Shown here piece after piece: positions 3,997 through 6,701 of a DNA stretch of 64,000 nucleotides. Each line of letters starts with the position of its first letter. Within the stretch, counting starts at the first letter, position 1. Source of the DNA: an uncultured delta proteobacterium (GTDB taxonomy: Bacteria; Desulfobacterota; Binatia; UBA9968); contig CAVTUQ010000005.1 in NCBI GenBank assembly GCA_963737905.1, positions 96,001-160,000 on the forward strand, in the 5' to 3' direction. The position numbers and the translations under genes were made by a program. Under the pieces are notes generated by a model that was given only the letters and a program-made list of their open reading frames with translations, did not search any database and was not told the DNA's origin.

Positions 3997-4692
3997 TCAA
4001 AGACCGACATAAGCAATCGGGTCGTCGAGCCCGACCTCCTTGAAACCTTTCAAACGGAGTTGGCAACTGTCGCACAGCCCACAAGCGCGTCCGTCGGGTG
4101 CAGGATCATAGCAACTCCAGGTGAGACCATAGTCTAGGCCAAGTTCGATGCCTTTTCTAATGATCTGTGCCTTGTTCATTGCAATCAAGGGCACATGAAT
4201 CTTGATCCGGCTCTTGCCTTCGACCCCTGCCTTGGTGGCCAGGTTGGCCATCGCCTCGAATGCGCGAATGTATTCCTCTCGGCAGTCCGGATAACCGCTG
4301 TAATCGAGCTGGTTGGCGCCGAAGAAAATATCTCCGGCCTCAATGCGCTCCGCTAGAGCCAGGGCAAAAGCGAGGAAAATCGTATTCCGCGCCGGAACAT
4401 AGGTAACGGGGATATCGCCGGCCATTTCTTTTGTGCTTCGCCCCTTGGGCACGTCTATTTGGTCGGTAAGCGCGGAGCCGCCGATGGAGCGAAGATCGAA
4501 ATCGGTCACCCGGTGGGTTTTCGTTTGTAAAAATGCCGCCACCTTCTTGGCGGCATCGATTTCCCGCTGATGGCGCTGCCCATAACGAAAACTCAGCGCG
4601 TGAAGCTGGAAGCCCTGCTGTTTGGCTATCGCGGCGGCGGTGGCGGAGTCGAGCCCGCCGCTCAAGAGAATAACCGCGTCTGTCCCTATCAT
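3997..4692 (-). CDS. queC: 7-cyano-7-deazaguanine synthase
   Basis: [35 protein letters not shown]; start moved to ATG 4692, which overlaps the upstream stop (ATGA). Confidence 0.95.
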
Positions 4693-5165
4693 TTTTGCGG
4701 CGAGGTGATTTTTGTCCCTTCCACCGGGTAGTGTTTTTGATACCAGCCGACAATGCCCTCGTCGAGGACTTTCATGTTGCGGTAACCCTTTTCGTAGAGA
4801 ATGCCATAGGCCAAACTGGCCAGGTGATGGGGACAAGCTCAATACAAGATGACTAATCGATCCTTGGGAATGCTTTGCACATAAGCATTGAACTCCGTGA
4901 GGGGCGCAGATATCGCGCCCAAAATGTGCACCTCACGGTACTCTTCGTCAGTGCGCACGTCGATGATCAGCGGCTTTTTTCCCGATTGGATATCTTTCGT
5001 GAGCTCATCCACAGAAATTAGTACAACGTTTGCCGGGGGTGATTGCTGGGCGAATTGGGGATATTTCGATGGATCGGCTTCGGCCGGCTGGCATCCGAAA
5101 AGAACACCCGCCAAAACTCCGACAATGAAGAAAGAGCTTGCTCGTGGACCAGGAAGGAGCTTCAT
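4689..5165 (-). CDS. Rhodanese-domain lipoprotein, probable selenoprotein (Sec at UGA 4839-4841)
   Basis: Lipobox [19 protein letters not shown]; in-frame TGA at the active-site Cys position (VILY-U-ACP); frame continues [20 protein letters not shown] to a TGA at 4689-4691. Confidence 0.85.
4804..4830 (-). promoter_or_regulatory. Candidate bacterial SECIS element
   Basis: mRNA CCAU-CACCU-GGCCA-GUU-UGGCC-U-AUGG; loop G 23 nt downstream of the UGA. Confidence 0.6.
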
Positions 5166-6040
5166 GGTTTGCCTCCATCGTTTTTGTAGTTGCTATACTG
5201 CGCCAGGGCATCCAAGCTCTGGGTGCCCATGTATCGCTGGCCGTTGATTACCCAGGTGGGATAATTTTTTATCCCTGCATCGTCGCAGACCGCAGTTTGT
5301 CGAGATCCCGCGCCCGCTGAGCTACACTCGATATATGGAAGGCGGCGCTCGGAACTGCCGAAAAGCTCCTTTTGCTCGGCACAGTGCGGGCACCAGGATG
5401 CGCCGTAAAATTTAGCGTCGGTTTGCGCGAGATGTTCGGCCAAGCCGCGGATCCAGGGATCCTCGGGACCAGGGGCTTTACCCAGATAGCCGGCATAGTG
5501 GAGATGCAACGCGACCACTAGGACGAGAGCTGTCCCAACCGACTTGCCGAGCCAGGGGCCCCAAGAAAAGTGAGGTAAATTGGCGGGCTTTTGAAGAAGC
5601 AAGGTGACGAAAATTACTGTCATCAACCCCAAAGAAGTCAGGCAGTAGGGGCAGGCGGCCTGCAGCACGAAAAAGGAGATCCCGGTCAGGTATAAACTGT
5701 AGAGGAGTCCAATGACGGTGACGAACCAAGCGAACTTCCACTGGCTGTCGGCATACTTGTTCCAGGCGATGGCGGCCAGCAAAGCGTACGTTAGAAAGCC
5801 CCAGAACGACGTCGGCATGCCAAGTAAGGTCGACCAGCGGCTATTCAAAACAACATCACAGGCGCTACCCACCGTACAGCCGGCCACCAGCTTTCCTTGC
5901 CATGCGTTGAAAGTGAGATAGGCAGTCAACCCCATGCCGATGAGAGCGAGAATGAAGAGCGGCCAGTTCGGGCCCTCGCGCAATAAGCCCTGTTTATTTC
6001 CTCTCACGTCGGTTTTCTTATGCTTGGCTGACTTGGCCAT
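5162..6040 (-). CDS. Vitamin K epoxide reductase (VKOR) fused to a thioredoxin-like domain
   Basis: GCTVGSACDVVLNSRWS loop cysteines, TM ACPYC, C-terminal FYGASWCPHC..YIEC..YPTW. Confidence 0.9.
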   Translation of the reverse strand: MAKSAKHKKTDVRGNKQGLLREGPNWPLFILALIGMGLTAYLTFNAWQGKLVAGCTVGSACDVVLNSRWSTLLGMPTSFWGFLTYALLAAIAWNKYADSQWKFAWFVTVIGLLYSLYLTGISFFVLQAACPYCLTSLGLMTVIFVTLLLQKPANLPHFSWGPWLGKSVGTALVLVVALHLHYAGYLGKAPGPEDPWIRGLAEHLAQTDAKFYGASWCPHCAEQKELFGSSERRLPYIECSSAGAGSRQTAVCDDAGIKNYPTWVINGQRYMGTQSLDALAQYSNYKNDGGKP

Positions 6041-6053
6041 GGGAACGCTCCTA

Positions 6054-6701
6054 TTATCCTTTAACCAAAGTTGCGACGTCTTTTTTTAGTCGCTCTAATG
6101 CCTGCGGGTCTCGACTATCGTAATAGCCCCGAATCTCGGCTTGCTTGTCGATCAATACGAACCTTGGGCTGTGCATGATAATGCTTTCCGAGCTGCCCGC
6201 GTTGGCGACCGGAACCGCACTCAACTTGAATCCTTCTTGCACGAGCCGGGTGATGTCCTCTTTATCGCCGGTGAGAAAGAGCCAGCGGATTGAATCAGCC
6301 TTATAGCGATCCGCGTAGCGGGAGAGTACCTCAGTTGTATCCTTTTCGGGATCCACGGAGAAGGAAACCAGTTTCAATCCCGCTTTGTCTTTCCATTGCT
6401 CCTGAAGCTGCGCCATTTCTGCGGTTTGCATTGGGCAGGTATCGGTGCAAGTCGTGTAAATAAAGTCGGCGATCCAAATCGACCCCCGGAGGTCGGCCAG
6501 AGTGGTCGCCTTGCCGCTTCGCTCCACGAGAGAAAATTTAGGCACAGTTCCATAGCGGCTCATGCCTTCGAGGGGATTGGCATTCCACCCCGTCAATCCC
6601 GGTCTGGGTGCGAGCTTCAGCCAAAAAAAGGTACCGACGATAATTCCCAAACCGAGCACGGAGACGCCCAGCAGAAGAAAGCGCGCTTTTGAGAAGTTCA
6701 T
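6054..6701 (-). CDS. SCO1/SenC family copper chaperone
   Basis: DFIYTTCTDTCP (CxxxC), SVDPEKDT, IMHS; N-terminal TM anchor. Confidence 0.9.
   Translation of the reverse strand: MNFSKARFLLLGVSVLGLGIIVGTFFWLKLAPRPGLTGWNANPLEGMSRYGTVPKFSLVERSGKATTLADLRGSIWIADFIYTTCTDTCPMQTAEMAQLQEQWKDKAGLKLVSFSVDPEKDTTEVLSRYADRYKADSIRWLFLTGDKEDITRLVQEGFKLSAVPVANAGSSESIIMHSPRFVLIDKQAEIRGYYDSRDPQALERLKKDVATLVKG

Follow-up and report, generated by a model that had tools for sequence, protein, structure and literature searches.

VKOR-thioredoxin fusion proteins are known from Synechococcus (3KP9, 4NV2), where a loop cysteine pair and a CxxC pair in a membrane helix are combined with a fused thioredoxin-like (Trx) domain that carries C-P-H-C. 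PspE of E. coli represents the exported single-domain rhodaneses. It has a single cysteine, no selenocysteine (Sec, U) and no linkage to SCO or VKOR genes, and its overexpression reportedly restores disulfide formation in a dsbA mutant, going by the title of a paper. A further family of small exported single-domain rhodaneses, LYCAU, consists of selenoproteins. In the CuA assembly of Bradyrhizobium diazoefficiens, a trio of a membrane-anchored SCO protein (ScoI), a membrane thioredoxin-like protein (TlpA) and a small soluble periplasmic protein (PcuC) is found, and in the accessible portion of that study the cysteines of ScoI and CoxB are described as needing reduction by TlpA before metallation (PMC6669012). 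Here we analyse a locus in which SCO, VKOR-Trx and an exported rhodanese are encoded side by side. It lies in a window of 64,000 nucleotides (nt), by which we mean the whole stretch of DNA that was analysed, from an uncultured delta proteobacterium, a soil bacterium (CAVTUQ010000005.1 of GCA_963737905.1, positions 96,001-160,000; source genome G000, a metagenome-assembled genome (MAG) that is 87% complete). Our data indicate that the rhodanese carries Sec in a U-x-C motif. The rhodanese is better described as a U-x-C selenoprotein that is accessory to a putative operon for the biogenesis of copper centres, in which the only VKOR-Trx of the lineage is also encoded. This suggests that copper-enzyme assembly in the cell envelope has a helper that has not been described before. 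The features of the window are as follows.

6054-6701, minus strand: SCO, predicted SCO1/SenC-type copper chaperone with N-terminal membrane anchor, C85-TDT-C89-P and H177 (Pfam PF02630)
5162-6040, minus strand: VKOR-Trx, VKOR with fused C-terminal thioredoxin-like domain (CPHC) (Pfam PF07884)
4689-5165, minus strand: predicted rhodanese selenoprotein, single-domain, 158 amino acids (aa) with TGA read as U, signal peptide at residues 1-30, loop U109-A-C111-P-H-H
4839-4841, minus strand: predicted Sec UGA codon (residue 109), at the canonical catalytic-cysteine position of the rhodanese fold
4797-4840, minus strand: stem-loop resembling a selenocysteine insertion sequence (SECIS), core hairpin GGCCA-GUU-UGGCC at 4809-4821
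3997-4692, minus strand: queC, 7-cyano-7-deazaguanine synthase (TIGR00364)
16025-33896, minus strand: copper-handling cluster, assigned by Pfam and by a tblastn panel on the loci of relatives
6727-6755, minus strand: weak sigma-70-like promoter match upstream of SCO

Under translation table 11, the open reading frame (ORF) of the rhodanese ends after 108 residues. When the TGA is read through, another 49 codons follow without a stop; the product contains the motif LVILY-U-A-C-P-H-H and ends at a second TGA that overlaps the start of queC. When 40 related genomes were searched in six frames, 22 gave an orthologue (42-81% identity) whose frame contains one TGA and no more. One of the 22 (G012) is an unpublished genome, as is G006, and without both the count is 21 of 38. 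The TGA column is conserved in 33/33 sequences of the orthologue alignment, and W141, Y146 and P147, which lie downstream of the TGA, are invariant at the protein level. Natural homologues that carry cysteine at this position (Y-C-A-C-P) were returned by a profile search of 1.84 billion representatives (P0169, P0233 and P0231). P0169 is 49% identical to the window protein over 118 residues and aligns without a gap through the Sec site; a protein-cluster query with P0169 returned generic rhodanese clusters only.

Additionally, the coding sequence after the UGA is constrained at the RNA level. The hairpin begins 17 nt past the UGA and is the sole structure retained when 32 distinct sequences are folded to a consensus. 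Its codons 114-119 (His114 to Ala119) are each represented by one codon in 79-100% of the sequences, five of the six at 91-100% and Ala119 at 79%; Ser117 is AGT in 31/31 and Ala116 is GCC in 32/32. At other conserved residues of the protein a single codon is used in 35-79% of the sequences, with the exception of the two residues that flank the UGA, Tyr108 (94%) and Cys111 (91%). Substitutions within the hairpin preserve pairing, with a G-C to C-G exchange in L065 and G-C to G-U changes in five sequences. Folded as a single sequence, the stretch that follows the UGA did no better than shuffled sequences (z 0.76), and the case for a SECIS element therefore rests on the comparative data. A short metatranscriptome piece that matches positions 4805-4835 (X18) was set aside; it has loose ends and probably derives from another organism.

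The genes for Sec synthesis and insertion are present in the source genome. selA (606.9 bits), selB (409.8 bits) and selD (381.4 bits) are clustered on one contig (C29:71024-75669), and all three score above their cut-offs. A selenocysteine tRNA (tRNA-Sec) was detected above cut-off in 15 of the 21 genomes scanned, i.e. 20 relatives and the source genome. The selD gene of the source genome itself carries one in-frame TGA, so that SelD would be a selenoprotein there. Two more ORFs of this genome with a rhodanese domain (C40:2294-2608 and C26:261563-261838, in open frames of 383 and 413 aa) have one in-frame TGA each and may encode additional rhodanese-type selenoproteins.

Read as a true stop, the TGA would leave a rhodanese remnant cut short at 108 aa, with untranslated sequence behind it. 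Gene callers do end the product at the UGA: in public gene calls, 119 of the best 120 database clusters (P0003-P0121) are 91-110 aa long, and the single long database entry (P0002, JGI) has Trp read at the UGA. Also in line with a stop, no tRNA-Sec was found in the 87%-complete source genome by an Rfam genome scan, by ARAGORN or by a further Rfam scan limited to 34 kb around selAB(D). On the other hand, the open frame past the TGA, the protein-level conservation in all orthologues including the three invariant residues, the cysteine homologues that align across the site, the hairpin and the Sec machinery of the genome already contradict a stop, which we regard as scarcely credible. By this comparison the UGA is identified as a Sec codon and the rhodanese as a genuine selenoprotein that is widely mis-annotated. 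If this is correct, its active site is missing from public annotations, and the annotation of the gene is systematically wrong in a soil and freshwater lineage (Candidatus Binatia or Deltaproteobacteria MAGs). One orthologue (G007; L044 / L117:5986-6459) has G-N-R instead of U-A-C and no in-frame stop. It retains its signal peptide and its place after VKOR-Trx; in this genome (92% complete) tRNA-Sec was not found, and a DsbH/DUF255 thioredoxin-like gene lies between SCO and VKOR-Trx.

The encoded protein is a rhodanese by sequence and by predicted structure. It matches PF00581 with 60.1 bits (cut-off 22.2; E-value 3e-16) over residues 52-143, and in phmmer alignments U109 falls on the LY-C catalytic cysteine of 6MXV and 3NHV, at the end of the central strand. 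With U109 at the position of the nucleophile, C111 is a second chalcogen two residues on. In the AlphaFold2 (AF2) model (mean predicted local distance difference test score, pLDDT, of 86.4), the loop 109-113 is located between strand 105-108 and helix 114-125, and a Foldseek search of the model against the PDB gave exclusively rhodanese domains as top matches. PspE gives weak NCBIfam and PDB matches to the window protein. An arsenate reductase or a Cdc25-type phosphatase was also considered and rejected, as the sequence has no C-X5-R loop. The residues that follow the U-x-C motif are less conserved: H113 is Arg in families f2 and f3, and the cysteine homologues show different residues (N, E, Y) at positions 113 and 114.

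By its signal peptide the rhodanese is exported, and it is probably soluble. In 27/27 aligned orthologues the signal peptide is made up of a basic n-region followed by a hydrophobic segment and A-x-A, and the mature N-terminus after A-x-A is conserved as DP(S/A/G)KYP(Q/E)(F/Y)A. The initial annotation had named the protein a lipoprotein, which we reject. The L-F-G-C in question occurs in the window copy alone and is not a canonical lipobox, and no aligned cysteine is present in 26/26 other orthologues, which have ordinary signal peptides ending in A-x-A.

The best NCBIfam match of the window protein is rhodanese_LYCAU (NF041203), with 65.8 bits (59 in the genome scan) against a cut-off of 115. 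Both families share the loop Y-[C/U]-A-[C/U]-P and a C-terminal G-W...YP motif. However, Sec and Cys are swapped: the window protein and all its Sec orthologues have L-Y-U-x-C with U-A-C, not the L-Y-C-A-U with C-A-U of LYCAU, whose members at 30 loci show C-[AST]-U or, once, U-T-U. The distribution of the two also differs. LYCAU was found above cut-off in 48 of 301 genomes of the same phylum, and SCO, VKOR and copper genes are missing from the surrounding 1.5 kb at all of its 30 loci. The U-x-C family occurs almost exclusively in one order, with 4 of 401 phylum genomes reaching E<=1e-22 with the family profile, the source genome included. In the part available to us, a 2026 review on the selenoproteins of prokaryotes names five forms of rhodanese (UxxS, UxxG, CxU, UxxG, UxxxxU), among which UxC does not appear (PMC13188914); a UxU variant of the CxU form appears in the accessible text of an earlier study (PMC1976440). 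U-x-C is thus a form that is absent from the list as seen in that review and, if the assignment is true, would be the sixth form of rhodanese-type selenoproteins.

The two genes upstream encode well-preserved proteins. SCO matches PF02630 with 104.2 bits (E-value 6.9e-30), and C85, C89, P90 and H177 are invariant in 18/18 aligned SCO proteins; it is thus predicted to be a membrane-anchored copper chaperone with intact copper ligands. VKOR-Trx matches PF07884 with 86.6 bits (E-value 2.2e-24). Its homology to the Synechococcus fusion extends over the full length, residues 25-290 aligning with residues 20-282 of 4NV2 (4NV2/3KP9; E 5.6e-45). Eight cysteines are invariant in 24/24 sequences (C55/C61, C130/C133, C217-P-H-C220 and C239/C252), and WCPHC is conserved, which comprises the three motifs described for Synechococcus. 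In contrast to the Synechococcus fusion, the window gene sits in a copper-chaperone operon with a selenoprotein gene next to it; its catalysis is predicted from the homology. VKOR is single-copy in the source genome, and no DsbB was found in a search of this 87%-complete genome. Across the order, 37 of 41 genomes have a VKOR, mostly a single one, with or without the rhodanese. Since it is the only VKOR/DsbB-type enzyme found in the genome and is near-universal in the order regardless of the rhodanese, VKOR-Trx is best seen as the probable general disulfide oxidase of the lineage and not as a dedicated enzyme. A predicted co-fold of the Trx domain (186-292) with the soluble domain of SCO (45-215), using the window sequences, gave an ipSAE of 0.00, which argues neither for nor against binding.

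The arrangement of these genes was examined in the relatives. In the window, a 13-nt gap separates the SCO stop (6054-6056) from the VKOR-Trx start (6040), and both VKOR-Trx/rhodanese (5162-5165) and rhodanese/queC (4689-4692) are joined by ATGA overlaps. The layout of the four genes, their spacing and the Cys and Sec motifs are as the initial annotation had given them. Of the genomes compared, 24 have the rhodanese gene. VKOR-Trx lies directly upstream of it in 20 of these and SCO in two (G031 and G033, L114 and L115), where a SIS-domain gene comes next. The window gene order recurs in 16 of 20 loci of relatives, and VKOR-Trx is followed by the rhodanese in 23 of 25 loci of GTDB species representatives, which are recorded as MAGs of Candidatus Binatia, Deltaproteobacteria, Thermodesulfobacteriota or Syntrophobacter. 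At the VKOR-Trx/rhodanese junction, 18 of 23 loci of relatives show a 4-nt overlap and three a 1-nt overlap; these counts depend on our own choice of start codons. The two genes are accordingly predicted to be translationally coupled. By the gene-order comparison, the linkage of SCO, VKOR-Trx and Sec rhodanese is conserved across three families and is more than chance. The initial annotation had staked its proposal on a linkage that extends beyond this genome and on a rhodanese that is not cytoplasmic; the neighbourhood survey found the former and the signal peptides indicate the latter. In the soil metatranscriptome, contigs run from SCO into VKOR-Trx (5991-6203) and from VKOR-Trx into the rhodanese gene (4959-5206), and none covers the UGA. 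They give weak support for co-transcription across the junctions, as DNA carry-over is possible.

The fourth gene does not share this conservation. queC is clearly assigned (TIGR00364 equivalog, 208 bits against a cut-off of 150.3; Pfam QueC E-value 5e-74), and it adjoins the rhodanese in family f1 only, where DUF58 and BatA genes come with it; in the loci of f2 and f3 it does not adjoin the rhodanese. It is a positional neighbour and not part of the system, as had been suspected from the start.

On the upstream side, the conserved region is larger than first reported. In nine loci with sufficiently long flanks, which represent all three families, genes for an ATP-binding cassette (ABC) ATPase, an ABC-3 permease, a Cox11-like protein and a DUF4382 protein precede SCO on the same strand, sometimes with a second SCO, CopD, a TlpA-like redoxin and a BNR protein. 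By gene content, the conserved core is a predicted copper operon composed of ABC, Cox11-like, DUF4382, SCO and VKOR-Trx genes. The corresponding cluster of the window (16025-33896) is located about 9 kb from SCO-VKOR-Trx, whereas in relatives it is contiguous with these genes and directly precedes them. It comprises three Cox11-like genes, two SCO, two CopC, CopD, DUF4198, DUF4382, a TlpA-like redoxin, a BNR protein and a methyltransferase, further a ZnuABC-like transporter (a split ZnuA-like substrate-binding protein (SBP), ABC ATPase and ABC-3 permease) and a BiPBP_C-like gene. The separate TlpA-like redoxin is encoded at 24179-24784. The source genome encodes two heme-copper oxidases and CuA subunits (two COX1 and two COX2 genes), and COX2, i.e. 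a CuA oxidase, is found in 38 of the 41 genomes of the order. A search for PCuAC detected none in the source genome, and it is present in only 2 of the 41. The best explanation of the region is that it represents the putative 3′ end of a periplasmic copper-centre biogenesis operon.

How the rhodanese might act in this setting can be outlined from the motifs and the gene order. SCO, VKOR-Trx and the rhodanese are all predicted to face the periplasm, and we infer a relay among them. We estimate a probability of about 40% that the rhodanese is a periplasmic selenenylsulfide oxidoreductase that serves copper-centre biogenesis and is recycled by VKOR-Trx. U109 and C111 would form a redox-active selenenylsulfide. 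The two chalcogens are probably such a couple, because the sister families accept Sec in either place of [C/U]-A-[C/U] or in both at once. Since a C-x-C disulfide is strained and oxidising, the rhodanese would be an oxidant or isomerase that VKOR-Trx can recharge. The CPHC domain of VKOR-Trx would oxidise the rhodanese and pass the electrons to quinone, and the oxidised or reduced rhodanese would then set the thiol state of the cysteines of SCO or of a copper-site client such as the CuA subunit. Alternatively, it might set the redox state of the copper that is being delivered. In either case its role would be accessory, comparable in kind to that of TlpA, SCO2 or COA6 in known CuA pathways. 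If this holds, the locus would give the first informative genomic context, namely copper chaperones and a disulfide oxidase, for two exported selenoprotein families with [C/U]-A-[C/U]-P. The position of the order's only VKOR/DsbB-type enzyme inside a SCO/Cox11-like operon would suggest that the formation of disulfides in the periplasm is functionally coupled to the supply of copper to respiratory oxidases. Among the matches listed in a literature search, which left subscription journals outside, no operon that joins VKOR with a rhodanese, or with SCO/SenC/Cox11, was described.

Several observations weigh against this proposal. Two genomes (G031 and G033) have no VKOR genome-wide and keep SCO-rhodanese, so VKOR-Trx cannot be an obligatory partner of the rhodanese, and in two of the 24 genomes (G005 and G016) the rhodanese gene is solitary and linked to neither SCO nor VKOR. 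Of 40 relatives, 16 lack it, with the rest of the operon unchanged, and a further one (G007) keeps a copy that has neither U nor C. Of the 12 rhodanese-less relatives examined, 11 still have SCO immediately before VKOR-Trx, with DUF4382 in nine and Cox11-like in eight, and G023 shows exactly the window order minus the rhodanese between VKOR-Trx and queC. No phyletic pattern links the rhodanese to COX2 (38/41) or to PCuAC (2/41). Additionally, VKOR-Trx is evidently a housekeeping enzyme, and its adjacency may reflect a shared envelope-redox theme instead of a specific relay. The chemistry is a further difficulty. In Bradyrhizobium, TlpA is described, in the text accessible to us, as a reductant fed from the cytoplasm, whereas VKOR-Trx would be an oxidant that feeds quinone, and an oxidising U-x-C protein fits uneasily with SCO and CoxB cysteines that are kept reduced (PMC6669012). 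If the proposal is true, known systems need the opposite activity, and the question how the cysteines of SCO and CuA stay in the right state becomes testable. Because SCO-VKOR-Trx is kept in rhodanese-less relatives, the rhodanese is an accessory last gene; from the loci compared it appears as an optional 3′ gene that follows VKOR-Trx, or SCO where VKOR is missing. The initial annotation had inferred a dedicated envelope system. Its linkage and its predicted periplasmic location stand, and the dedicated character does not, with a VKOR that is the only one in the genome and is adjacent to SCO without the rhodanese.

These same observations can be explained by co-location without a specific relay, where VKOR-Trx would be a general equivalent of DsbA/DsbB and the rhodanese an independent exported redox or sulfur enzyme with its own substrates. 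The single VKOR in a genome without a detected DsbB, its presence in 37 of 41 genomes irrespective of the rhodanese, the otherwise unchanged operons without rhodanese including that of G023, and the solitary genes of G005 and G016 all fit this explanation. It accounts less well for the fact that the rhodanese occupies the same insertion point in three families, and the place after SCO where VKOR is missing, or for the start/stop overlap with VKOR-Trx in 21 of 23 loci of relatives; the sister LYCAU family is without such neighbours in 30/30 loci. We therefore consider mere co-location rather unlikely. A different function within copper delivery is suggested by the copper-chaperone neighbourhood and by the scarcity of PCuAC, found in 2 of 41 genomes although CuA oxidases are found in 38. 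In this case the rhodanese would be a soluble periplasmic copper chaperone or cupric reductase in the role of PCuAC/PcuC, with U109, C111 and H113/H114 as the Cu(I)/Cu(II) ligands from which the metal is passed to SCO or the Cox11-like protein. As far as the available text of PMC6669012 goes, the trio of a soluble protein, a membrane SCO and a membrane thioredoxin-like protein mirrors PcuC/ScoI/TlpA, with a Sec rhodanese fold in place of PcuC, and the accessible part of PMC13188914 lists Sec within motifs for soft metals, among them that of a UxC Cu/Zn efflux transporter. Yet the proposed histidine ligands are not maintained, H113 being Arg in f2/f3 and both positions being variable in the cysteine homologues, and relatives that lack the rhodanese are just as devoid of PCuAC. 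To our knowledge, though no search was aimed at it, no copper chaperone with a rhodanese fold has been described, and we judge this function to be improbable. The same doubt applies to its widest form, a previously undescribed route in which the U-x-C rhodanese would replace PCuAC as a selenolate-ligand metallochaperone or copper-redox enzyme and, together with SCO, the Cox11-like protein and VKOR-Trx, would couple disulfide formation to copper insertion; we hold this to be quite unlikely.

It is also conceivable that the protein is a true sulfurtransferase, in which Sec bears a persulfide-like Se-S adduct derived from thiosulfate or polysulfide, C111 or Trx resolves it, and the enzyme protects or supplies sulfur chemistry in the envelope. 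The rhodanese fold with a nucleophile at the catalytic position would be suited to this reaction, and periplasmic rhodaneses such as PspE are known, as are rhodanese-thioredoxin couples, e.g. GlpE. However, the f1 loop (U-A-C-P-H-H) is without the basic residues of active rhodaneses, and no sulfur-oxidation or polysulfide-reductase genes are nearby in any locus examined, which makes a sulfurtransferase distinctly doubtful. The selenenylsulfide oxidoreductase set out above remains our preferred reading.

Some further features of the window were observed around these genes. A 200-nt spacer is located 5′ of SCO, and beyond it lie divergent genes for a PNPOx-like protein and a major facilitator superfamily (MFS) transporter. 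Within the spacer, the promoter-like match at 6727-6755 agrees with 9 of 12 sigma-70 consensus positions. The number of such matches in the region is not above that of shuffled sequences, and the match is only a hint of a possible promoter. In the copper-handling cluster, the three Cox11-like paralogues are about 290-375 aa long, and the Cox11 domain is C-terminal only and weakly matched (E 1e-6 to 3e-7). The gene of the ZnuA-type SBP (32879-33896, minus strand) is split into 33896-33528 and 33466-32879 by a frameshift and not by an in-frame UGA; this may be an assembly error or a pseudogene. Downstream of queC, genes of DUF58 and BatA/VWA (‘aerotolerance’) type follow at 1296-3983 on the minus strand, spaced by 13 and 3 nt, and their place is kept in family f1; no MoxR ATPase was seen upstream in this string. 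Adjoining the metal cluster, a ChrB regulator and a chromate transporter are encoded as a pair at 35504-37375.

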